DNA from: Gemmatimonadota bacterium
GTDB lineage: Bacteria; Gemmatimonadota; Gemmatimonadetes; Longimicrobiales; Gaopeijiaceae
DNA: 64,000 nt
NCBI GenBank assembly: GCA_034521595.1
Contig: JAXHMG010000003.1
Span: 2,688,001-2,752,000, forward strand
Direction: 5' to 3'
A program made the translations under genes and the position numbers. This document shows, one piece after another, positions 7,401 to 54,192 of this stretch (position 1 is its first letter; the number at the start of each line of letters is the position of its first letter). Under the pieces are notes generated by a model. That model was not told where the DNA came from. It did not search any database and was given only the letters and a program-made list of their open reading frames with translations.

Positions 7401-9200
7401 TGAGCGCGGACGTCATGCAGATCAAGATCGCGCAGGGGGCGAAGCCCGGTGAGGGGGGTCAGCTCCCGGGGTTCAAGGTCGACGGGAGCATCGCCAAGGT
7501 GCGTCACTCGACACCCGGAGTGGGGCTCATCTCCCCGCCGCCCCACCACGACATCTATTCGATCGAGGACTTGGCCCAGCTCATCTACGATCTCAAGAAC
7601 GTGAACCCCGGCGCGCTGGTGAGCGTGAAGCTCGTTTCCGAGATCGGGGTGGGTACCGTCGCGGCCGGCGTCTCCAAGGCGCACTCGGACCGGGTCACCA
7701 TCGCGGGCCACGACGGCGGAACGGGCGCGAGCCCGCGCACGTCCATTCACCACGCGGGGTCTCCCTGGGAGATCGGCCTGGCGGAGACCCAGCAGACGCT
7801 CGTGCTCAACCGGCTGCGCGGCCGGATCACGGTACAGGTCGACGGCGGGTTGCGCACGGGCCGCGATGTCGTCATCGGGGCCCTCCTGGGTGCCGACGAG
7901 TTCGGCTTCTCGACCGCGCCGCTCATCGCCTCCGGCTGCATCATGATGCGCAAGTGTCATCTCAACACCTGTCCGGTCGGCGTCGCCACGCAGGACCCCG
8001 AGCTCCGGAAGCGCTTCACCGGGCTACCGGAGCACGTCATCAACTACTTCTTCTTCCTGGCTGAAGAGGTGCGGGAGCTGATGGCGGAGCTCGGATTCCG
8101 GACCTTCGAGGAGATGATCGGCCGCTTCGACCGCCTCGATATGCGACGGGGGATCGAGCACTACAAGGCACACGGCCTCGACCTGACCCCGCTTCTCACC
8201 AAGCCCGAGGTCGGGCCGGAGATAGCGATCAGCAACACCGAACAGCAGGAGCACGATCTCGACACCGTGCTCGACCGTACGCTGATCGAGCAGGCCATGC
8301 CGGCCCTGGAGCACGGTACGCCCGTACGACTGGAGCACGCGATCCGGAATACCGATCGCACCACCGGCGCCATGCTTTCGGGCGAGGTCGCACGTCGCTA
8401 CGGACACGCCGGACTGCCCGACGAGACCATCCACGTGAAGCTCACCGGAAACGCCGGCCAGAGCTTCGGAGCGTGGCTGGCGCACGGCATCACGCTCGAG
8501 CTCTCGGGAGACGCGAACGACTACGTGGGCAAGGGCCTCTCCGGCGGGCGGATCATGGTGTACCCACAGGAGCGCGCCGCCATCACGCCGGAACGGAGCA
8601 TGATCGTGGGCAACGTGGTGCTCTATGGAGCCATCACGGGTGAAGCTTATTTCCGAGGGGTAGCCGCGGAGCGTTTCGCGGTGCGGAACTCGGGGGCGTG
8701 GGCCGTGGTCGAGGGCGTGGGAGACCACGGGTGTGAGTACATGACCGGAGGTGTCGTCGTGGTGCTCGGACCGACCGGGCGAAACTTCGCCGCCGGGATG
8801 TCCGGAGGGATCGCGTACGTCCTCGACGATGAGCGCGACTTCAGCCTGAAGGTGAACCCCGAGATGGTGGAGTTGGAGCACGTCGTGGACGAACGGACGC
8901 CGGAAGAGCGCGCGGCCGACGCCCAGCCGGACGCGAAGCTCTCCGAGGTCGCCCGGGACATGCGTGCACAGGACGCTTCACGCCTCCACCGGCTCCTCGT
9001 CCGGCACGCGCACCATACGGGGAGCGAGCGTGCGAGAGAGATCCTCGAGAAGTGGGACGAATACCTTCCCAGCTTCGTCAAGGTGATGCCCACGGACTTC
9101 CGGAGGGCCCTGACCAAGCTCGCGAAAGACGCGGGAACCCCCGGCGAGCCCCGGACACGACCCGCATACCAGCCGAAGCCCGCCGTGGGGAGCTACCAAG

Positions 9201-17981: not shown

Positions 17982-19145
17982 GTGACTCCCGAATCCTTCC
18001 TTGCACTGACCGAGAGGAATGCCGACCCGGCCTTCCTCCTTTCTTCGCATGGCACCGTCGTAGCCGCGAACCCCAGTGGCTCGTCGACGCTCGGCTGCAC
18101 CGCGGTGAGCCCGGACTGCGGCATGGACCTCGGGGACTTCGTCGACGACTCGGAAGGAGCCTTCGAGGCGCATCTCCGCAGCTGGGTCGCCTCCGGCGTG
18201 CCCATCAGCCGCCCGATCCGCCTGAAAGATCCGGACGGCCGCCGACGCCGTTACCGGGGCGAAGGGCTCCGGGTCACAAGCCCCGGGCCGCAGGTCGACC
18301 CTCTGGTGCTGCTCCACTGCGTGCCCCTCGACGCACGGGCGGAGCGCCGATCCACCCTCGCACCGCAGCGATCGGCATCCGAAGGAAAGGAGCCCAGGAC
18401 CGTCGGCAAGATGGAAGCCATGGGCAACTTGGCCGCCGGCATCGCGCACGATTTCAACAATCTGCTGACGGTGATGAAGGTCGAAGTCGAACTCGCGATG
18501 GAGCACGACGAGGTCCCGGCCGAGATCGTGGACTCGCTTCTCTCGACGCACGCTGCCGTGCTCCGCGCCGAGTCCCTGGTCGACGGCCTCCTCGCGTTTT
18601 CGAGGCACCAGCTCGTTCGGACTTCTCGAACCGACCTGCGGCGACTGGTCGAGGGGACGATTCCGAGGGTCCACACCATCACCGACCCGGCCGAGCCGGT
18701 CGTGGATCAGGCAGATGCGCCCCTTCCCGTACAGATCGATCCGGAGCACATGGAGACCGTGCTCCTCGCCCTCGTCCGGAACGCTGTAGAGGCGACGACC
18801 GCCGAGCCGTTCGTGAGCATCCGGACGCGCAGGGAGGTGCTCGGCCCGGACTTCGTGCGCAGGAACGCCGGCTCCAGCGAGGGAGAGTTCGCGGTCCTCG
18901 AAGTCGCGGATCGGGGAACGGGCATCCCACCCGAAGTCGCCGCTCGCATGTTCGAGCCGTTCTTCACGACCAAAGGGAGAGGCTACGGTCGTGGCCTCGG
19001 GCTGGCGCAGGCGTTCGGCATCGTGAAGATGCTCGGCGGTTACGTGAAAGTGGACACGGACCTCGGTGTGGGATCGACGTTCACCGTATACCTGCCGCTT
19101 CAGGGAGACCTACAGGGCGACCCAGAGCGTACGGAAGACGCTTAG
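17982..19145 (+). CDS. Cytoplasmic PAS-domain sensor histidine kinase, no receiver domain
   Basis: N-terminal PAS-like region; H-box GIAHDFNNLL; DRGTGI, FEPFFTTK, GRGLGL, GVGSTF. Confidence 0.9.
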   Translation: MTPESFLALTERNADPAFLLSSHGTVVAANPSGSSTLGCTAVSPDCGMDLGDFVDDSEGAFEAHLRSWVASGVPISRPIRLKDPDGRRRRYRGEGLRVTSPGPQVDPLVLLHCVPLDARAERRSTLAPQRSASEGKEPRTVGKMEAMGNLAAGIAHDFNNLLTVMKVEVELAMEHDEVPAEIVDSLLSTHAAVLRAESLVDGLLAFSRHQLVRTSRTDLRRLVEGTIPRVHTITDPAEPVVDQADAPLPVQIDPEHMETVLLALVRNAVEATTAEPFVSIRTRREVLGPDFVRRNAGSSEGEFAVLEVADRGTGIPPEVAARMFEPFFTTKGRGYGRGLGLAQAFGIVKMLGGYVKVDTDLGVGSTFTVYLPLQGDLQGDPERTEDA

Positions 19146-19192
19146 CAGCCCACGGGCGGAGGGACACGCCCCTCAGCACGCAGCCAGGCCCG

Positions 19193-20041
19193 CTACGGAA
19201 GGTGCTCGACGAGGAGTTGCTGAAGGGTCTCTGGATCGTCCGCGTTGACCCAGTGCCCTCCGTCGACCCGGTGGAGTCGCACCCGACCGTCCGTGGCCCG
19301 GCCCGCCGCCTCGACGCGGGCGCAGGCGTCCTCGTCCAGCACGGTGGAAGCGCTCGCCTTGATCATGTGCACGCGGGCTTGGGCGGGCGGCGCCTCCAGC
19401 ACCGGCCACGCATCCGTGTCGAAGAAGTCGCGAAGCAGGGCCTCCATCTCGTCGGGGTCGACCCGCCACACGAGCTCGTCTCCGACCGGGGAGCGGACGA
19501 GGTTCGTGGCCATCCACTGCGCGACCGGATTCGGGAAGCCCGACGCCTCCACGGCCGCGATCCCCTCGGCACGGTCGGCGAACGGGCCCGGATTCCGTCG
19601 GAGCACCTCGAGCATGGTCCAAGCGCTTCCCTCCGGGGTCCGCGCCGCGGGTGTCGAGTCCACGACCCAGACGCTCCGGGGCACCTCCACCGAGCCCACA
19701 TCCCCGCGGCTCGTTCCGGCGTCACGTAGGTACAGGAGGGCGACCTTCCCTCCGAACGAGTGCCCGAGCACCGCGGTGGGCGCGATCCCGAGATGCTCGG
19801 CCAGCCGCTTGAGGTCGTCCACGCACGCTTCGAGGGTATGCGGCGGCTCGAAGCCCCCCGAGTCACCATGCATCCGAAGGTCGACGGGAATCGCACCCCA
19901 CTCGGGCCGCTCGCGGACCAAGCGCCGAGCCACGGAAGACCAGTTGCGCCCCGCCCCGTAGATTCCGTGCAGGACGAACATCCATCGGTCGGGGTTCGCG
20001 TCGGGGGCTACGATGTGGTCGTGGGCGAGAATCGGTGGCAT
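19193..20041 (-). CDS. Alpha/beta hydrolase (YbfF/ABHD11-like esterase)
   Basis: LHGIYGAGRNW, VDLRMHG, GHSFGGKVA, GHWVNADDP. Confidence 0.9.
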   Translation of the reverse strand: MPPILAHDHIVAPDANPDRWMFVLHGIYGAGRNWSSVARRLVRERPEWGAIPVDLRMHGDSGGFEPPHTLEACVDDLKRLAEHLGIAPTAVLGHSFGGKVALLYLRDAGTSRGDVGSVEVPRSVWVVDSTPAARTPEGSAWTMLEVLRRNPGPFADRAEGIAAVEASGFPNPVAQWMATNLVRSPVGDELVWRVDPDEMEALLRDFFDTDAWPVLEAPPAQARVHMIKASASTVLDEDACARVEAAGRATDGRVRLHRVDGGHWVNADDPETLQQLLVEHLP

Positions 20042-20164
20042 GTCGGACCAGGTTTCGGGAGATCGTGGCACGCGAAAGGGGAACGGGCGCCCGCAACCTG
20101 CCCGATCCCCACGGAGGAATCAATCGTGTGCCGCCAGGCCCCGCGGTGATCCGGGAGCCCAACG

Positions 20165-20614
20165 TCATTCCACGACCATGGACTCCGCGATCAGCACCAA
20201 GCGCTCCACCGCGACTTCATGACCGGTGGCGTCGAGCTCGGGGCCTTCCATGGCAGTTGGCAAGGCATTCACGAGCCGCCAGGTCTGCACGACACCACTG
20301 CGGTCCTCGGCCAGGAGCTGGATGAGGACCGTCCGCCGGTCGGCCGAGCCGCGCAACGAGGCATCCAGCCATTCGTGCAAGATGGTGTCGCCGATGAGCC
20401 CCCTGCTCAGCGTCGCCGTGATCGGGCTCGCACGTCCGGGGATGAGCCGCGGCGCATTCGTCTTGTAATTCCCCGCACGGTATTGGAGCATCTCCACCGA
20501 CCGGTCGAGTCCGCTCACCGCGCTGAACCCCGCCTGCACCGATTCGGGGTCGAGCCCCTCGAATGACACGAGGAAGTTGAAAGAGCCATAGGGAGTTTCG
20601 CGAAGCACGGGCAT
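20165..20614 (-). CDS. T4 gp19-like tail tube protein (eCIS Afp1/Afp5 type)
   Basis: PYGSFNFLV, GFSAVSGL, YRAG, RLIPGR, TLSRG, HEW, RRTVLIQL, WRLVNALP, GPELDA, VAVERLVL match the gp19-family pattern. Confidence 0.9.
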   Translation of the reverse strand: MPVLRETPYGSFNFLVSFEGLDPESVQAGFSAVSGLDRSVEMLQYRAGNYKTNAPRLIPGRASPITATLSRGLIGDTILHEWLDASLRGSADRRTVLIQLLAEDRSGVVQTWRLVNALPTAMEGPELDATGHEVAVERLVLIAESMVVE

Positions 20615-20615
20615 A

Positions 20616-21131
20616 TCAGCCTTCCTGTCGGATGAGATCGTCAAAGACCAGCTCGAGCTCCTCGAGCGCGATGTCGCCGTGAAGCGCATCGTACCGTGGG
20701 CCGGCCCACCGCAACGGCCATGCGCTGGTGATCTTCCAGGTGTACAGGGTCCGTCCCCCGGCACTTTCGAGATGCCCGATCACCACCTGCCGAATCGCGG
20801 GCTTACCGCTCAACGCTTCCCGCCGCCATTCGTAGAGGGTCCGGTCTCCGTCCAGCGCCCGGGTCAACAGGAGCCTGCCGGGACACGCCGGAGCGCTCCA
20901 CAGCACACGCTCCGGATCCCCCGGATCCTCTTTCCGGCTGAGCTCATCCACCTGCGAAGCGAGCTCGAGCCCGGAAACCCGCGTGCACGAAATCGGTATG
21001 CCGGCGATCTCGACCGTGAAATGGGCGGCCACGGTTACCGCGTCGTCCCCACCCCGCCATGGCAGCGGCGTGCGACCCCGCGGGTCCGAATGTGGCGGCT
21101 CGGGCCGGGGAGGCTCGTTCGGTAGCGTCAT
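20616..21131 (-). CDS. Second, divergent gp19-like tail tube protein
   Basis: HFTVEI, RVSGL, LLLTRAL, LYEWR, RQVVI, WKITSAWPLRWAGP..DA, IALEELEL. True start may be downstream of 21131. Confidence 0.8.
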   Translation of the reverse strand: MTLPNEPPRPEPPHSDPRGRTPLPWRGGDDAVTVAAHFTVEIAGIPISCTRVSGLELASQVDELSRKEDPGDPERVLWSAPACPGRLLLTRALDGDRTLYEWRREALSGKPAIRQVVIGHLESAGGRTLYTWKITSAWPLRWAGPRYDALHGDIALEELELVFDDLIRQEG

Positions 21132-21376
21132 TCGTCCAGCTCATTAATTGGGCGGCGGCGAGGGTGTCCGACGGTGCGGGTCGATGAATACAGGGTTTCC
21201 GTAAGCGTCTTCCGACATCATGCTCCACACACGAGTCTGCCGCCAGGCGCCAGCTGTTCACATCCACGTCGACGGGAACCGGGCATGGCCAACAAGCTAA
21301 CCAACCTACGAGATGTCCATGCCCGCGTGCAGCCGAGACCGCACGACCTCGACCGTGCGGTTTCGGGTCCCCGGTC

Positions 21377-22132
21377 GTGACGCCCCGGCCGGTGCGCACC
21401 ATCGACGACGTCATCAGCGACCTGGACGGAGTCGTGCGCACGTGCCACGAGCGGGGGAGTCGGGCGGGCTACTTCCCCGCGCTGTACAGGCGCGTCACGG
21501 TAGAAGTGCGTGACTGGATCCGTGAGGGACGTTTCGACGACGGAGCGCGCATGGAGCGCTTGGACGTCCTCTTCGCCGACCGATATCTCGAAGCGTGGCA
21601 ACAGCGGGAACGTGGAGAACCGACGAGCCGTTCATGGGGGGTCGCGTTCGACGCGACCGAGGCCTGGTGGCCCATCGTGCTCCAGCACCTCCTGCTCGGG
21701 ATCAACGCGCACATCAATCTGGATTTGGGGATCGCCGCGGCCCGCACGGCACCGGGGGCCGACATTCACGGTCTCGGCGACGATTTCCGTCGGATCAACA
21801 ACCTGCTCGCGTCCATGATCGATGACGTCCAGAAGCGTCTAGCCGACGTTTGGCCATTGTTGCGGCTCCTCGACTGGCTCGGGGGCGACGCCGACGAGGC
21901 CACGATCCACTTCAGCATCGAGCGGGCCCGGGAAGCGGCATGGGCCCTCGCGGTTCGGCTTTCGGCGCTTCCGGAGGCGGCGTGGGCGCACGAGATCCAG
22001 ACCACCGACCGGCTCGTGGCGACGCTCGGACGGGTCGTGCGTCACCCCGGCCCGGGGCTGGGCACCGTGCTCCGGGGTGTCCGCCTCGGCGAGCTCCGCT
22101 CCCCCGAGGGGGTCATCGAGCTCCTTTCCTGA
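21377..22132 (+). CDS. DUF5995 family protein
   Basis: GYFPALYRRVT, RFDDGARMERLDVLFADRY, QHLLLGINAHINLDLGIAA. Confidence 0.85.
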   Translation: MTPRPVRTIDDVISDLDGVVRTCHERGSRAGYFPALYRRVTVEVRDWIREGRFDDGARMERLDVLFADRYLEAWQQRERGEPTSRSWGVAFDATEAWWPIVLQHLLLGINAHINLDLGIAAARTAPGADIHGLGDDFRRINNLLASMIDDVQKRLADVWPLLRLLDWLGGDADEATIHFSIERAREAAWALAVRLSALPEAAWAHEIQTTDRLVATLGRVVRHPGPGLGTVLRGVRLGELRSPEGVIELLS

Positions 22133-22231
22133 GGAGACGGTCCCAGCGTACCCTCCCTGCACGCACTCACCCGTCGAGGAGTCATCCCCCCGGTGTGTAC
22201 CCAACACCGGCGACTCTGCGTGTTCGCATCG

Positions 22232-23476
22232 TCAGTGGCCCAAGGCGATCCGGATCTCGTCGACCACGGTCGCTTCCGATTCCGCTTCCAGCCCGTCGGA
22301 CAGCGCGGCCAGAGCGTCCGGTGTCCCGATCTCGCCGAGGGCCCAGGCCGCGTGTTCCCGCGCGAGCGGGGCAGGGTCGGACAGCGCCGCGGTCAGCACG
22401 GGGATCGCCTCCGGCGAGCCCCAGTTCCCCAACGCAACGCAGACGTTGCGCGCGAACCCAGCCCGCCCCGCCCGGCGTATCGCCGAGGCCCGGGAGAACG
22501 ACTCCCACGCGCGCTCATCCAGGGCCGTCTCCAACAAGTCGACGAGCGGGGACGCGAGCGTGCCGGGGTGGGGCTCCGGCGGGCTCTCGGCAGTCGCCTC
22601 CACGCCCGGCGGCCGCTCGCCCGGACCCCGCGCCGCGTATCGGCCCTCCGGGTCGGGCGCGGCAAAGCGCCGGTTCCACGGACACACCTCCTGACATATG
22701 TCACACCCGAAGACACGGTTCCCGATAGCGGGCCGTAGCTCCCGGGGGATGGAACCCTGCAGCTCGATGGTCAGATACGAGATGCAGCGCCGGGCGTCCA
22801 TGACCGGAGCACCGTCTTCGTCACGGCCGAGCAACGCGCTCGTCGGGCAAGCGTCGAGGCAGGCCCGGCAGGTGCCACAGTGATCTTCGGTGAAGGCCTC
22901 GTCGGGAGGGAGGGGGATTTCGAGCAGGAGCGCCCCCAGGAAAAAGTACGAGCCGCGGCGGGGATGGATGAGCATCGTGTTCCGCCCGAACCACCCGAGG
23001 CCCGCCCGGCGGGCCAGCTCTCGCTCCAGGACGGGACCCGTGTCGACGTACACGCGCCCCGGCCTGTCCTCGCGCCGGAGACGTTCGGCGAGCCACCGCT
23101 GCAGCCGCTGGAGCTTCCGCCGCACGACGCGGTGGTAATCCGCCCCACGCGCATACCGGGCGACGACGCCGATCGCGGGATCGTCGGGTACACCGGGTGG
23201 GTCGTCAGGGAGATAGGCGTCCGCGACGACGAGCACCGATCGCACGCCGGGGAGCGACGCATGCAGAGCCTCCCGCCGGGCGATGGCGTCGGGCCGGGCA
23301 AGGTAGTCCATCGTGCCATGGTGGCCCCGCTCCAGCCAGCGCCGGTAGAAGGCCCCGTGCTCGCTGTCCTTGGCCTCCGCGATACCGGCGCGGTCGAAGC
23401 CCACCCGAACGGCTTCGGCCTTGAGGTCTTCGGCGAGCCCGGCGTCGCCGGAACGCTCCGGATCCCACGCGCTCAC
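22232..23476 (-). CDS. queG: tRNA epoxyqueuosine(34) reductase
   Basis: ARYARGADYH, VDTGPVLER, AGLGWFGRN, HCGTCRACLDACPT, RCISYLTIE, FGCDICQEVCPWN, C-terminal HEAT repeat. GTGA overlap with the upstream stop. Confidence 0.95.
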   Translation of the reverse strand: MSAWDPERSGDAGLAEDLKAEAVRVGFDRAGIAEAKDSEHGAFYRRWLERGHHGTMDYLARPDAIARREALHASLPGVRSVLVVADAYLPDDPPGVPDDPAIGVVARYARGADYHRVVRRKLQRLQRWLAERLRREDRPGRVYVDTGPVLERELARRAGLGWFGRNTMLIHPRRGSYFFLGALLLEIPLPPDEAFTEDHCGTCRACLDACPTSALLGRDEDGAPVMDARRCISYLTIELQGSIPRELRPAIGNRVFGCDICQEVCPWNRRFAAPDPEGRYAARGPGERPPGVEATAESPPEPHPGTLASPLVDLLETALDERAWESFSRASAIRRAGRAGFARNVCVALGNWGSPEAIPVLTAALSDPAPLAREHAAWALGEIGTPDALAALSDGLEAESEATVVDEIRIALGH

Positions 23477-49063: not shown

Positions 49064-49981
49064 GTGGACTCCGTTTCGTCCACACCACAGCCCACGTCCA
49101 CCGCGGGCGACAGCGCCGACACGGGCGTGACGGTGCGGTGCGCCGGCGTCCGGGGCTCGATCCCGAGTCCCGGGCCGTACACGGTGCGCTATGGGGGCAA
49201 CACGAGCTGCGTGGAGCTTTGTTCAGGCTCGACCCGACTCCTGCTCGACGCCGGATCGGGGATCCGCGCCCTGGGCCGAGAGCTGGCGAGCGGGGACGTC
49301 AAGGAGCACACGATCCTCCTGACACACTTCCACTGGGACCACATCCAGGGGTTTCCGTTCTTCGGTCCGCTGCACGATCCCGCGTGCCACCTCCGCGTGT
49401 TCGCTCCCGGGCAGCCGAAGGCCGACGTGCGACAGCTCTTCGAACGTCAGATGGATCCGGCCTTCTTCCCCGTGCCCCTCGAGGCGGCCGCCGCGCGACT
49501 GACGTTCCATGAAGCTTCGGAGGGCCCGGTCGAGGGTCTCGGGGCCGTCGTGCACGCGATGCGGGTCAGACATCCGTCGCACGTGCTGGGCTACCGCATC
49601 GAGCTCGAGGGTCGGGTGGTGTGTTACGTCCCGGACAACGAGCTGGCGAGCACCGGGTACGACCTCGGACCCCGTTGGCGCGAGGAGATGATCGAGTTCG
49701 TCGGGGACGCGGACCTGCTCATCCACGACGCCATGTACACCGAGTCCGAGTACGAGAATCGCGAGGGCTGGGGCCACTCCACCTTTCGGCAGGCGGTGCG
49801 TCTCGCGGAGGATGCCGGGGTCCGACGTCTGCTCTTCTTCCACCACGACCCCGCCCGCACCGACGAGCAGCTCGACCGGATCGTCCACACCCTACGCGAG
49901 CACGTCGCGGCCCGTGGCTCCCGTGTCGAGCTCGAAGCCGCTTCCGAGGCCTCCTCCTTCCATGTGGAGCCACGCGCATGA
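49064..49981 (+). CDS. MBL-fold metallo-hydrolase (candidate cyclic-nucleotide phosphodiesterase)
   Basis: GVRGSIP, YGGNTSC, LDAGSG, THFHWDHIQGFPFF, LIHDAMY, GWGHS, FHHDP. GTG 49064 behind GGAGGA. Confidence 0.88.
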   Translation: MDSVSSTPQPTSTAGDSADTGVTVRCAGVRGSIPSPGPYTVRYGGNTSCVELCSGSTRLLLDAGSGIRALGRELASGDVKEHTILLTHFHWDHIQGFPFFGPLHDPACHLRVFAPGQPKADVRQLFERQMDPAFFPVPLEAAAARLTFHEASEGPVEGLGAVVHAMRVRHPSHVLGYRIELEGRVVCYVPDNELASTGYDLGPRWREEMIEFVGDADLLIHDAMYTESEYENREGWGHSTFRQAVRLAEDAGVRRLLFFHHDPARTDEQLDRIVHTLREHVAARGSRVELEAASEASSFHVEPRA

Positions 49982-51885
49982 GCACCCCCACCCGCCGGAG
50001 GCGAGGACGACTCGCGATCCTCCTCGCGACGCTTCCACCCCTGCTCGCGCTCGACGCGCCGGACCGGGCGGAGCCCACCAGTTGGGCACTCGTCGTGGGC
50101 GTCACCGACTACGTCCACTTCGACGACGAGGAGGGCGGCGATCTCCCGGGCGCGGAGCAGGATGCGCGCCGGATGCGCGATGTCCTGGTCAGTCGGGGAT
50201 ACGTGCCGGAGACGAACGTCCGACTCCTCCTGAACCGGGAAGCGACCCGCGCCGGAATGGAAGAGGCGATCACGGGCTGGCTCGGAGAGCGGGCTGCTCC
50301 CGGAGACGACGTCTTCGTCTTCTTCGCGGGGCACGGATCACAGATGTGGGACGAGGACGGGGACGAGAGCGACGGCCTGGACGAGACCCTCGCTCCGGCC
50401 GACGCGCTTCCCGACCGGACCGACAACGACATTTCGGACGACGTCTTCGGCATGTGGCTGGACGGGATCCCCACCGAAAACGTGATCGTGATCCTCGACA
50501 GCTGTCACTCCGGCACCGGAACGCGGGACGTCACCCCGTTCAGCCGCGCCCGTGCGCTGGGACGTGACCTGGACGACATCCCCGAGCCGGAGGAGGGGAT
50601 GAGAACCCGCACCGCCGATGGCGGTCCCGGCGCCGAGCCGTCGGGGTTCGAGGCCGGGGAGCGGGCCGTGCTCGAGCTGGCGGCCGCGCAACCCGATCAG
50701 GCCGCGGTCGAGGTTCTCTTCCCGGAAGAGGGGGGCGCCGAGCCTTTCCAGGGCGGAGCGTTCACGACCCACCTCGTCCGTGAGCTCTGGCGCGCGTCCG
50801 AGGGGGACACGTACGAACAGGTCTTCAGGCGGACCGCCGAAGCCATGAAGAGGAACCGGTTCCAGCAAGACCCGAGGCTTTCGGAAGAGGTCGACCTCAA
50901 GAATCGGTCGATCGCCCGACTCGACGCCACCGGATCCGCCGGGCGGCCGTCGGGTCTGCCCGTGCTCCGCGTTTCGGGAACACGGGTGGAGCTGGGAGGC
51001 GGCGCGGCCCTCGGGATCCCCCCCGGCTCGACCTTCGAGACGCCTTCCGGGGGTCGCCTCACGGTCGTGTCCAGCGGGGAGCGGGAGATCACCGCGGAGA
51101 TCGCCGAAGGCCCGGTCGAGGTCGGAGACCTGGCTCGCCTGACGGCCTATCGATACCCCGACCGCCCGCTCCTCGTGAACGTCGCGGCCGTCGATACGGA
51201 GATCGCCCGATCCCTGTCGGATATGCTCGAGGGCACGACGGGCATCCGGACGGTCGAGGATCCCGACGGCTTCAGCCACCTGCTCCTGCGCCGCTCGGGG
51301 GAGGAGCTCCGTGTCCTCGGGATCGACGGCTTCGTACGCCACGACGGTCTGAGCGCGGCCCCCGACGCGCTGGGGGCGGTGGCCGCCATCTTGCGGACGG
51401 AAGCCGCCTCGAAGCGGCTCGGTGATATGGAGAATCCCGCGCAACCCTTCGACGTACGGCTCGCGATGTCCGACGGCCGGTTCGCGTTCGGGCTCGGGGA
51501 AGAGATCCGGTTCCGCCTTCGGTCGGAGCGGGACGGGTATCTCACCCTCGTCGACCTCGGCACGGACGGTACCGTTGCGATGCTCTTTCCGAACGGAGAA
51601 ACGCCGAGCGTGAGGGTGCGGGCCGGGGAAGAGATCGTGTACCCAGCCGGCGCCGACGTGTACTTCGAGGCGCTGCCTCCGGCCGGCAGCGGTCTGGTGC
51701 GCGCCTTCGTGACGGACCGGCCGCTCGACATCCCGATACCGGACGGCGAAACCTACGCCTATGGAGACGAAGAGTTCGCCGCCACGGTCGTGGAGGCGCT
51801 CCTCGACGCCGTCGGGTCCAGCCACGGTGGCGTCACGCTCGATTCCTGGGGCACCGCGTCGCTCACGTACCGGATCCGTCCGTGA
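49978..51885 (+). CDS. Exported caspase-family (peptidase C14, metacaspase-like) protein with C-terminal DUF4384-like domain
   Basis: Arg-rich then hydrophobic N-terminus; WALVVGVTDY, FFAGHGSQ (His), ILDSCHSG (Cys), GAFT..L, Q.P.L; C-terminal GEEIRF..SERDGYLTLVD..DGTV.MLFPN. ATGA overlap with the MBL gene. Confidence 0.88.
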   Translation: MSTPTRRRRGRLAILLATLPPLLALDAPDRAEPTSWALVVGVTDYVHFDDEEGGDLPGAEQDARRMRDVLVSRGYVPETNVRLLLNREATRAGMEEAITGWLGERAAPGDDVFVFFAGHGSQMWDEDGDESDGLDETLAPADALPDRTDNDISDDVFGMWLDGIPTENVIVILDSCHSGTGTRDVTPFSRARALGRDLDDIPEPEEGMRTRTADGGPGAEPSGFEAGERAVLELAAAQPDQAAVEVLFPEEGGAEPFQGGAFTTHLVRELWRASEGDTYEQVFRRTAEAMKRNRFQQDPRLSEEVDLKNRSIARLDATGSAGRPSGLPVLRVSGTRVELGGGAALGIPPGSTFETPSGGRLTVVSSGEREITAEIAEGPVEVGDLARLTAYRYPDRPLLVNVAAVDTEIARSLSDMLEGTTGIRTVEDPDGFSHLLLRRSGEELRVLGIDGFVRHDGLSAAPDALGAVAAILRTEAASKRLGDMENPAQPFDVRLAMSDGRFAFGLGEEIRFRLRSERDGYLTLVDLGTDGTVAMLFPNGETPSVRVRAGEEIVYPAGADVYFEALPPAGSGLVRAFVTDRPLDIPIPDGETYAYGDEEFAATVVEALLDAVGSSHGGVTLDSWGTASLTYRIRP

Positions 51886-51939: not shown

Positions 51940-54192
51940 GTGAGTCGCGCGAGGAAGTTGCGGCGACTCGCCGCGTTCCTGGCCATCGTGCTCGGCGCGT
52001 CGTCGCTCGCGCTCGTTCTCGACGCGATGGGGGAGCTCACGGGCCTCCGCGCGTTCGAGGATCTCACGCTCGATCTGCGGCAGCGCACGACGGCGGAGTC
52101 ACTCCTGCCGGGCCCCTCGGAGCGTTCGACCGACGTGGTCCTGGTTCTCTTCGACGAGCATTCCGTGCTCGACCCGGATTTCGGGTGGCCCTGGCTCTCG
52201 CCGTTCCCCAGAAGCGTGCTCGCCGACCTGGTGGACGCGCTTTCGGAGGCCGGCGCCCGCACGATCGGCTTGGACGTCTACCTCGACCGCCTCTTCCCCG
52301 GTCTCGACACCATCGACGGGGGCAACGACCGCCTGCACGCGGCGATGGAGCGGGCCGGCAACGTGGTCCTAGCCGCACCGCTCCAACGGACGGACTCGGG
52401 ACCGACCGTCGCTCCACCCCACCCGATGTTCGCCACCGCGGCCACCGACGTGGGCGCCGCCGACCTCCCGGCCGCCTTCGAGACCTTCCGGGATGGGGCT
52501 CTGGCGGTACGCTCCGGCAACGGTCTGGAGCCTTCGTTCTCCCTGGCGCTCTACGCTCACGCTCGGGGCCTGGACACCGACTCGCTGCTCGCGGCGGCGG
52601 AGCGCTCGGGCCGGCTCGACCTCCCCGGCCTCCCCGAGAACGTGGGGCACGTGCCGAGCGGCTGGTTCCGGGACGACGGCGCGGGAGCGGGGTCCATCGT
52701 GCCGTTCCGGGTCCGGTACACCGGCCCTCCCTCGAGCGCGGACGCGGAGGACCCACCGGGCACGTTTCCCACGTACGCGTCCGGAACGCTCCCCGTGACG
52801 GCCTCGTTCGCACCCGAGATGTTTCGCGACAAGATCGTTCTTCTCGGAACGGGCTTTCACGACGAAGACAAGTTCCGGACGCCGTTCTACGGCGCTTCAC
52901 CTCCCGACGATGTCGAAGGCCCGGACGGCCGGGAACCGTACACGTGGATGTTCGGTGTCGAGCTCCACGCCAACGCGCTCCAGAACATGCTCGACGAACG
53001 CTACGTCGAGCCACTGGGCTCGACCGCCTCGGCCCTGCTGCTGCTTCTCGTGGCGTTCGTGCCGGCCGCCGTGACGTTCCGGTCCGGGGCAGCGTGGAGC
53101 GGAGTGGTGACCGCGGGCGTCATTCTCGGCGTCGTGGCCGGCGCCTGGTGGGCCTGGGCCGGAGCCGTGTATGTGCCCGGCTTCGAGGTCACGGGCCTCG
53201 GCACCGCTTTTCTCTGGGTTCCCGTCGCGGCCCCGATGGCTTCCGGCCTGCTCTCCTATGTCGGATCCGTGGGATACGTAGCCATCGTGGAAGGGCGGGA
53301 AAAGCGATTCATCAAGAACGCATTCGGGAAATATCTCTCGCCCGACGTCGTTGCCGAGATCGCTGACGACCCCGAATCGCTCTCGCTCGGCGGGCAGAGT
53401 CGTCCACTCTCGTTGCTCTTCTCCGACCTGTCCGGCTTTACCTCGCTTTCGGAGCAGCTGTCACCCGAAGAGCTCGTCGCCCTGCTGAACGAGTACCTCG
53501 ACGACATGACCCGAGTCGTGCTGTCCGAGCGCGGATATCTGGACAAATACATCGGGGACGCGATCATGGCGTTCTGGAACGCCCCGCGCGCGCTCGACGA
53601 TCATCCGGACCGGGCGCTCCGGGCGGCGGTTCGAATGCAACGAAGCCTCGATCGGCTCAACGCGCGGTGGAGTCGAGACCACGACCGCCCCGACCTTCGG
53701 GCGCGGATCGGCGTGCACACGGGGCCCGCCGTCGTGGGGAACGTCGGGGGCCGCGACCGTTTCGACTATTCGGCCATCGGGGACGCGGTGAACCTCGCCG
53801 CGCGCCTCGAGCCGGCCAACGACACCTACGGCACGCGCATCATCACCTCACGGGAGACATTGGACGAGGCGGACGCCACCCGCTTCCGGATCCGCGAGCT
53901 CGACCTCGTGGCGGTGAAGGGGAGAGACCAACCGGTCTCGATTCACGAGGTCGTGGAGCTCCGCGAAGCCGAGCTTCCCCCCGGGCTCGCACGTGCGCTC
54001 GAGCGATACGACCAGGGCTTGGCCGCCTACCGGGCAAGGGATTGGAACCGGGCGAAGACGCACTTCGTATCCGCACTCGACGCCCGGCCGGAAGACGGCC
54101 CGAGCCGACTGTACGTCGCCCGCTGCGACGCGCACATCACCGACCCACCCGCTCCCGATTGGGATTTCGTGGTGCAACGGAGCTCGAAGTAA
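51940..54192 (+). CDS. CHASE2-domain class III adenylate cyclase with C-terminal TPR
   Basis: PFPRSVLADLV..GARTIGLDV, DKIVLLG, DKFRTPF, GVELHANAL; 3 TM segments; FGKYLSP, LFSDLSGFT, DKYIGDAIMAFW, DYSAIGDAVNLAARLE, VKGR. Confidence 0.93.
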   Translation: MSRARKLRRLAAFLAIVLGASSLALVLDAMGELTGLRAFEDLTLDLRQRTTAESLLPGPSERSTDVVLVLFDEHSVLDPDFGWPWLSPFPRSVLADLVDALSEAGARTIGLDVYLDRLFPGLDTIDGGNDRLHAAMERAGNVVLAAPLQRTDSGPTVAPPHPMFATAATDVGAADLPAAFETFRDGALAVRSGNGLEPSFSLALYAHARGLDTDSLLAAAERSGRLDLPGLPENVGHVPSGWFRDDGAGAGSIVPFRVRYTGPPSSADAEDPPGTFPTYASGTLPVTASFAPEMFRDKIVLLGTGFHDEDKFRTPFYGASPPDDVEGPDGREPYTWMFGVELHANALQNMLDERYVEPLGSTASALLLLLVAFVPAAVTFRSGAAWSGVVTAGVILGVVAGAWWAWAGAVYVPGFEVTGLGTAFLWVPVAAPMASGLLSYVGSVGYVAIVEGREKRFIKNAFGKYLSPDVVAEIADDPESLSLGGQSRPLSLLFSDLSGFTSLSEQLSPEELVALLNEYLDDMTRVVLSERGYLDKYIGDAIMAFWNAPRALDDHPDRALRAAVRMQRSLDRLNARWSRDHDRPDLRARIGVHTGPAVVGNVGGRDRFDYSAIGDAVNLAARLEPANDTYGTRIITSRETLDEADATRFRIRELDLVAVKGRDQPVSIHEVVELREAELPPGLARALERYDQGLAAYRARDWNRAKTHFVSALDARPEDGPSRLYVARCDAHITDPPAPDWDFVVQRSSK

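Follow-up and report, generated by a model that had tools for sequence, protein, structure and literature searches.

Contractile injection systems (CIS) are usually treated as indivisible machines, and surveys define them by their co-located core genes. Inner tubes of the Afp1/Pvc1/Cis1 type are assembled on a baseplate within a sheath, and their genes neighbour those of both structures. Here, we describe two adjacent genes, tube1 and tube2, whose products belong to the same family (PF06841, T4 gp19/CIS inner tube) and resemble those tubes in sequence and, for a model of tube1, in fold, but whose genome has no such sheath or baseplate genes that could be found. The pair lies in a window of 64,000 nucleotides (G000:C3:2688001-2752000; all window coordinates are relative to its first letter). 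It originates from a soil-type Gemmatimonadota genome (G000; 3.49 Mb in three contigs without Ns, ~93% complete by marker genes). On balance, we lean towards considering the pair a two-tube module that is autonomous, needs no sheath, and descends from the inner tube of contractile injection systems.

Both proteins are homologues of gp19/Afp1-type tubes, on which profile searches, sequence searches against the PDB and fold searches with the tube1 model agree. The gp19 homology claimed in the original prediction, which was made from the sequence alone, has thus held. The match to PF06841 (cut-off 28.2 bits) reaches 56.8 bits for tube1 and 100.2 bits for tube2, and tube2 also matches TIGR02241 with 90.9 bits. 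The two proteins are 33% identical to each other across the C-terminal 86 residues. In a phmmer search of PDB sequences, tube2 scores 58-67 bits with Afp1/Pvc1/Cis1-type chains (E 2e-17; 9qgl_1A 66.6, Afp1 65.5, Pvc1 61.2 bits) and less with the second-tube paralogues Afp5 (39.5 bits) and Pvc5 (38.6 bits). A tube1 profile (A2) retrieves the Pvc1/Afp1/Cis1-type chains in the same order, if more weakly (45-39 bits). The solved tube chains that were matched are PDB 6rao_A, 6j0b_a, 7adz_1a, 9qgl_1A, and 7b5h_AN. The AlphaFold2 (AF2) model of tube1, based on a 23-row alignment, has a predicted local distance difference test score (pLDDT) of 75.9, with a core predicted well and a hairpin of lower confidence. 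When it was submitted to Foldseek, the Pvc1, Afp1, and Cis1 tubes ranked first (probability 1.0, E 1e-9 to 4e-7, template modelling score 0.53-0.69, with 0.57-0.69 for Pvc1 and Afp1).

The upstream copy, tube1, had been described as divergent, with its usual loop replaced, and both open reading frames (ORFs) as intact; on the loop, the profile alignment agrees. The region that reads 'EY.dG..n..K.PG' in Pvc1-type tubes holds 'L.rKedP.d..rvlWsaPa.PG' in tube1, with the terminal PG retained. The N-terminus of tube1 is disordered in the AF2 model (block-mean pLDDT 55, 50, and 39 for residues 1-30; <50 at residues 18-33), and secondary structure begins no earlier than residue 38. Its start motif, M-T-L/P-P-N-x-P, is kept in the four congeneric species introduced below and in the distant homologues P0015, P0016, and P0018; across the congeners, the start can be written as M-T/I-x-P-N/D. 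Inspection by eye revealed no signal peptide or membrane segment in tube1 or tube2. A complex prediction for tube1 (residues 30-171) with tube2 gave the same score as a control with an unrelated chain.

The contractile-system families that were searched for, other than tubes, are absent from G000, and its PF06841 matches are confined to tube1 and tube2. A profile search of the whole genome gave no match to the sheath family PF04984; the best matches to PF17482 (sheath; 15.3 bits vs. a cut-off of 26.9) and PF14065 (Pvc16_N cap; 16.2 bits vs. a cut-off of 27) are far from the window. At E<=0.1, G000 has no match to gp25 (PF04965), Baseplate_J (PF04865), the Afp7-type tube (PF19266), or the sheath TssC/VipB (PF05943) of type VI secretion systems (T6SS), and it has none to the spike OB domain PF04717 (VgrG/Phage_base_V). 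The whole-genome check for sheath, baseplate, spike, and cap homologues that had been proposed at the outset thus returned nothing over cut-off. Genomes from the same bacterial family do encode entire systems. That of G007 is a complete extracellular contractile injection system (eCIS) with the order Pvc16, sheath, tube, sheath, tube, Afp7-like, GPD, base_V, and Baseplate_J; the components present in G065 are Pvc16, a sheath, two tubes (the second of which is known solely from a genome-wide PF06841 match), CIS_tube, VgrG, PAAR, gp25, and Baseplate_J. When 12 and 15 contractile-system proteins of these two genomes were compared to G000 by tblastn, both tubes were the only matches. Six same-family sheath proteins gave no credible tblastn match anywhere in G000, the flanks of the pair included, and VgrG, GPD, base_V, and PAAR queries taken from relatives gave none at E<=0.01 either (the PAAR Pfam model was not run).

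Within the window, a Pfam scan of 53 ORFs detected no phage or contractile-system family besides the tube pair, in agreement with the claim that the 64 kb hold no such gene; the remaining scanned ORFs have metabolic or housekeeping functions (e.g., gltB/D, gyrA, an ECF sigma factor). No match was obtained by tblastn of tube1 against 50,697 phage records, and its plasmid relatives are eCIS tubes at 25-32% identity only. Because phage records hold no relative and the window ORFs are of the housekeeping type, we do not regard the pair as a phage gene or prophage module.

The same pair occurs in three congeners (G002, G003, and G004), with 70-74% identity for tube2 and 62-65% for tube1, and both ORFs are intact in all four species. 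The ratio of nonsynonymous to synonymous substitution rates (dN/dS; Nei-Gojobori method, six species pairs, dS 0.40-1.08) lies at 0.23-0.31 in tube1, and tube2 spans 0.19-0.41. The corresponding values for orthologous neighbours are 0.20 (panC), 0.20 (hydrolase), 0.15 (DUF5995), and 0.30 (GT2 glycosyltransferase). Judged by these ratios, both tube genes are under purifying selection at the level of housekeeping genes. The locus is partly syntenic, as the hydrolase and panC side is common to G002 and the GT2 gene to G003; the immediate neighbours vary (G004, MFS and DUF305; G003, MacB/FtsX and an amidohydrolase). A complete eCIS in the same place in relatives, named beforehand as the observation that would speak against the original prediction, was looked for in G002, G003, and G004, and none is present. 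Vertical inheritance of the module is the best reading of these data. In contrast, a lone tube gene in G082 (L033:9857-10555(-)) has a fragment of a sheath C-terminus (42-52 aa; L033:10494-10637) upstream, and this locus is clearly a genuine eCIS deletion remnant.

The bacterial family was represented by 151 genomes. A PF06841 match is present in 31 of them and a PF04984 match in 20; all 20 are among the 31, and 11 genomes have tubes with no sheath match. From 60 PF06841 places, seven contig-end fragments and two short or weak rows were dropped, and a tree was computed from the remaining 51 rows (in four of which the Pfam match covered the C-terminal half only, so that the sequence was extended from the ORF). 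Eight rows form a tube1-like clade (support 99/99): the four congeners and G041, G093:C219, G116:C219, and G138:C21. The contigs of these eight members carry no sheath match (PF04984), and all of the 28 sheath-adjacent tubes fall outside the clade. Unlike the Afp1/Pvc1/Cis1 tubes, tube1 belongs to a clade of its own that is never sheath-adjacent in the sampled contigs.

In G041, G093, and G116, the tube1-like gene is directly followed by a gene for a canonical tube. These cassettes are flanked by housekeeping genes, including those for GT2 and a MutS-like protein, a subtilase and an M14 peptidase, and an SDR and an X-Pro peptidase. A cassette from a different family (G465) has L,D-transpeptidases on one side and a HAD hydrolase on the other. 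It is the verified cassette from a phylum-level profile search, which mixed tube1-like with canonical tubes (tube2 of G000 itself scored 76 bits) and in which the other contigs with two matches were G169:C66, G298:C7, G241:C9, and G416:C3. Whether the two-gene cassette recurs without a sheath in relatives can thus be answered positively, with housekeeping flanks in G002, G003, G004, G041, G093, G116, and G465. Four of the eight cassette genomes have no PF04984 match at all (G000, G002, G041, and G116, the last being 69% complete).

Some loci in these genomes carry other isolated components. In G093, a 218-aa ORF without Pfam match (L055:1194-1850(-)) starts 9 nt after the tube pair; it is not found next to other cassettes. 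In one genus, the genomes contain just one canonical tube gene and no sheath match (L029:10006-10851(+) in G088, L030:9675-10485(-) in G127, L034:10017-10472(+) in G152). A 129-aa ORF without Pfam match directly follows the lone tube in G088 and G127; that of G088 was considered as a tube1-like partner, but is not detectably so (hhalign probability 1.1), and it represents a different module. Orphan sheath-like genes of ~380-530 aa were encountered in G003 (L023:9033-10748(+)), G060 (L031:9288-10850), G155 (L032:9258-10643), G138 (L035:3061-4650(-)), and G465 (L070, ~7421-9004(-); from tblastn only). They have weak C-terminal matches to PF04984 and/or PF17482. In G003, G060, G155, and G138, they have housekeeping flanks and no adjoining tube or baseplate gene. 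Sheath genes, too, seem to exist alone in this bacterial family.

The pair was also traced in metagenomes. A phmmer search with tube1 against 1.84 billion cluster representatives gave 700 matches at E<=1e-3, three of them at E<=1e-30; a word-indexed search yielded 22 clusters with 48-100% identity, and a protein-atlas look-up returned generic PF06841 clusters only. A scan for the motif [GD][CA]W[PA][KCA]RW[ST]G identified 56 loci, a sample that is biased to this motif. A tube2-like gene adjoins the tube1-like gene in 50 of them. Three of the six unpaired loci end at the contig edge just past the tube1-like match, one has ~320 bases left, and in the remaining two (L125 and L126) the match itself is weak or atypical. 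When 15 sheath, cap, Afp7, spike, and baseplate queries were run by tblastn, they matched none of the 56 loci. Pfam analysis of 66 of the 110 called neighbour ORFs (19 loci; the 44 omitted ORFs were mostly from near-duplicate loci or very short) revealed no contractile-system family; the neighbours include CorA, ABC transporters, sigma factors, MFS, DAO, methyltransferases, and riboflavin genes. With ~19 different gene neighbourhoods among these loci, the pair, as judged from gene content, recurs alone across many unrelated contexts.

Natural fusions connect the two tube types with each other and with a third domain. In P0036, P0052, P0054, and P0059, a partial PF00004 domain (model positions ~14-119, without the P-loop part) is joined to a tube1-like PF06841 domain. 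P0073 and P0093 are further chains of an N-domain and a tube1-like domain; the N-domain matches PF00004 in P0052 and not in P0073. At four loci (L088, L110, L115, and L117), a tube2-like gene is followed by a gene for such an N-domain plus tube1-like chain. Among the 120 clusters listed for a search with P0036, 13 carry both PF00004 and PF06841, and one is named as a Kiloniellales metagenome-assembled genome (MAG). P0030 (455 aa) is a single chain in which an AAA-like domain precedes a tube1-like and then a tube2-like one, with two PF06841 stretches; when it was included in a MAFFT alignment, every tube1-like row was placed on its tube2 domain. Taken as encoded, the fusions tie tube1-like, tube2-like, and partial AAA domains together. 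In G000, the AAA-like N-domains of P0036, P0052, and P0073 have no match at E<=0.01, and PF00004 has none among the scanned window ORFs (E limits 1e-3 to 1e-5; a genome-wide PF00004 scan was not made). A protein of different architecture, P0076 (335 aa), has an apparent N-terminal signal peptide followed by two tandem canonical tube domains and is possibly an exported double-tube protein.

The stop codon of tube1 and the start codon of tube2 are separated by a single nucleotide (AGGAAGGC TGA T ATG; the codon before the stop is GGC), and the AGGAAGG run in the 3' end of tube1 is Shine-Dalgarno-like. The same 1-nt junction is read from the translated frames of G002, G003, and G004; in G116, the ORF coordinates of the pair overlap by 4 nt. 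Because of this coupled junction, the overlap in G116, and the single-chain fusion P0030, the two proteins are probably made in about equal amounts. An intact and selected pair that lacks a machine and recurs alone in many bacteria probably builds something that works without contraction. The module would function without sheath, baseplate, and spike, with tube2 as the canonical ring-forming subunit. The product of tube1, with its rewritten hairpin-loop region and its disordered N-terminal arm, would be a specialised subunit that may cap, nucleate, or alternate. In relatives, the arm is replaced by the partial AAA-type domain, which matches the model downstream of the P-loop region. The two proteins may co-assemble in the cytoplasm into a hetero-oligomeric Hcp-like ring, a double ring, or a short non-contractile tube, for which a carrier or chaperone ring, a scaffold, or a container would be candidate cellular roles.

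Several observations weigh against such a self-sufficient module. At a completeness of ~93%, an eCIS of 20-30 kb could sit in the unassembled part of G000. Four of the eight cassette genomes (G003, G004, G093, and G465) have a PF04984 match elsewhere, so in some lineages the pair may share its work with a sheath encoded at a distance. The metagenome loci are mostly short, many of them below 5 kb, several are near-duplicates or close relatives, and sheath or baseplate genes of high divergence could have escaped the tblastn queries from Longimicrobiales and the Pfam scan of 19 loci. P0030 may stem from an error in assembly or gene calling. The AF2 model still places a hairpin in tube1 (strands 64-81, pLDDT ~65), and loss of polymerisation is thus not established. 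Finally, NCBIfam ranks CIS5_fam over CIS1_fam for both tubes and hence disagrees with the PDB ranking. The scores (tube2: CIS1 21.6, CIS5 72.5 bits; tube1: CIS5 47.6 bits) are far under the equivalog cut-offs of 220 (CIS1) and 260 bits (CIS5), and we give this sequence-based preference less weight than the PDB ranking.

The completeness gap and the distant sheath matches are also what could be cited for satellite tubes, that is, alternative tube or adaptor subunits, comparable to those from orphan hcp genes of T6SS, for a contractile system that is encoded elsewhere and, in G000, is unassembled or was recently lost. G093 combines the cassette on C219 with a sheath and a tube gene on C271, a lone tube1-like gene occurs alongside sheath genes in G138, and in G003, G004, and G465 a sheath-like gene is on a contig other than that of the cassette. 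We nevertheless consider this explanation unlikely. The sheath-like genes of G003, G060, G155, and G138 are the orphans described above and not full machines, and G000, G002, and G041 (as well as the less complete G116) are devoid of PF04984. Searches of G000 for baseplate, spike, cap, and Afp7 families found none. After loss of the partner, constraint at housekeeping level would be unexpected in four species at dS ~1. The original prediction had offered satellite tubes for a distant eCIS and a deletion remnant alongside a domesticated, sheath-independent tube or filament, and neither of the former two is supported for G000. A decaying, functionless remnant of an eCIS that was deleted in the ancestor of the genus has precedents in the family, with the true remnant in G082 and full eCIS loci in sister genera (G007 and G065). 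This explanation is already largely refuted and, in our view, hardly probable at all: the ORFs are intact in four species with dN/dS values of 0.19-0.41 that are like those of the neighbours (0.15-0.30), the junction and the start motif are conserved, tblastn detects no sheath-like sequence in G000, and the same pair occurs in ~19 different neighbourhoods.

A function in defence can be envisaged as well, in which a host-encoded tube pair with an altered subunit would poison the tails or tubes that infecting myophages or incoming injection systems assemble. That mimics of structural proteins can interfere with assembly is an established concept, and the rewritten ring-joining loop of tube1 would suit it. 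Such a role appears quite improbable to us, given that PADLOC gave no match, that the flanks are housekeeping genes rather than defence islands, that the locus is orthologous and stable in the genus (synteny of GT2, hydrolase, and panC), and that no phage record contains a tube1 relative. The domesticated, sheath-independent tube or filament fits best, since the cassette is found without a sheath beyond this genus, in a second family, and at 50 of the 56 metagenome loci.

A conserved and selected tube pair without the other parts shows that the tube module evolves independently of them. This spans Gemmatimonadota genera, at least one MAG labelled as Alphaproteobacteria (with an AAA fusion), and dozens of metagenome contigs. 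More tentatively, and with more doubt than conviction, we suggest that the pair represents a widespread, undescribed class of non-contractile nanostructure: a self-sufficient two-subunit ring or tube with an intracellular, non-injection use, sometimes with a partial AAA domain, and with orphan sheath-like and DUF5995 genes as occasional partners. In the literature searched, titles and abstract openings held nothing on tube pairs that lack a sheath or on fusions of AAA and tube domains. Should the pair self-assemble, it would be a minimal, compact ring or tube scaffold made from two proteins of ~150 aa each, which would be of interest to the evolution of phage-tail-like machines and to protein nanotechnology. 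For annotation, it is a warning that 'phage tail protein' matches in such genomes mark neither a prophage nor an eCIS.

The features of the locus are compiled in Table 1. The arrangement stated in the original prediction, two tandem gp19-like genes 1 nt apart between an esterase and a divergent DUF5995 gene, is borne out by the sequence and by Pfam. For tube2, the ORF listing also contains a longer, GTG-started ORF, which is an upstream extension of the 149-aa frame. The alpha/beta hydrolase gene is possibly co-transcribed with the tube pair, and no terminator-like site was predicted in the gap 20072-20164. Its orthologue is downstream of the pair in G002 (75% identity); next to other cassettes, the gene is not conserved. 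No sigma-70-like promoter site was detected in 19000-22300, a scan that is uninformative for this phylum. No PADLOC model matched either tube protein or the neighbours. The wider flanks contain panB, panC, a histidine kinase, QueG, a GT2 glycosyltransferase, and MazG. Farther away in the window, a caspase-like Peptidase_C14 with DUF4384 (49621-51885(+)) is directly followed by a CHASE2-adenylate/guanylate cyclase (51940-54192(+)).

Table 1. Features of the tube1/tube2 locus (positions within the window).
Feature	Position	Strand	Remarks
alpha/beta hydrolase, PF12697/PF00561	19193-20071	(-)	93 nt downstream of the pair, same strand
tube2: canonical Afp1/Cis1-like inner tube protein	20165-20614 (coding 20168-20614, stop 20165-20167)	(-)	149 aa
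tube1/tube2 junction	20612-20628	(-)	AGGAAGG within tube1 3' end, TGA, 1 nt, tube2 ATG
tube1: divergent CIS-type tube paralogue	20616-21131 (coding 20619-21131, stop 20616-20618)	(-)	171 aa
tube1 N-terminal Pro/Arg-rich extension	21024-21131	(-)	residues ~1-36, variable-length linker, conserved start motif
DUF5995 gene, PF19458	21377-22132	(+)	E 7.6e-73; divergent from tube1

DUF5995 was encountered at two further loci. In the metagenome locus L114, such a gene (L114:8876-9613(-), E 3.2e-59) directly follows a distant cassette. In G003, an orthologue with 78% identity (L023:8824-9567(+)) is located directly before the orphan sheath-like ORF. It is absent from the other cassette contexts examined. 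The three adjacencies to orphan injection-system parts seem to be beyond chance, while most cassettes are without DUF5995; by its genomic position, it is a possible associate of the tube pair.

Among the described systems, Afp5/Pvc5/Cis5 share with the G000 pair the presence of two tube paralogues, one of them a specialised ring, and CIS5_fam is the better of the equivalog models. They differ in that both G000 tubes score higher to Afp1-type than to Afp5-type PDB chains. Afp5 works at the junction between baseplate and tube, as tube initiator or adaptor, whereas no baseplate gene was found in G000. The orphan hcp and hcp-vgrG islands of T6SS are likewise tube-fold genes away from the main machine, and orphan Hcp proteins serve a T6SS that is present in the same cell. 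In contrast, G000 has no match to the T6SS sheath, and its proteins belong to PF06841 rather than to Hcp and form a fixed heterologous pair. For plasmids, a 2026 paper (PMC13098142) counts 929 orphan hcp/vgrG/PAAR islands. P0030, with two diverged tube domains in one chain, resembles tandem tube-domain proteins. In phage T5 pb6 and in the N-terminal domains of gp27/VgrG, tandem tube domains form pseudo-hexameric trimers. Unlike P0030 and the tube pair, these proteins belong to tails or spikes that are complete. By analogy, the likeness suggests alternating subunits within one ring as a possible arrangement for tube1 and tube2.

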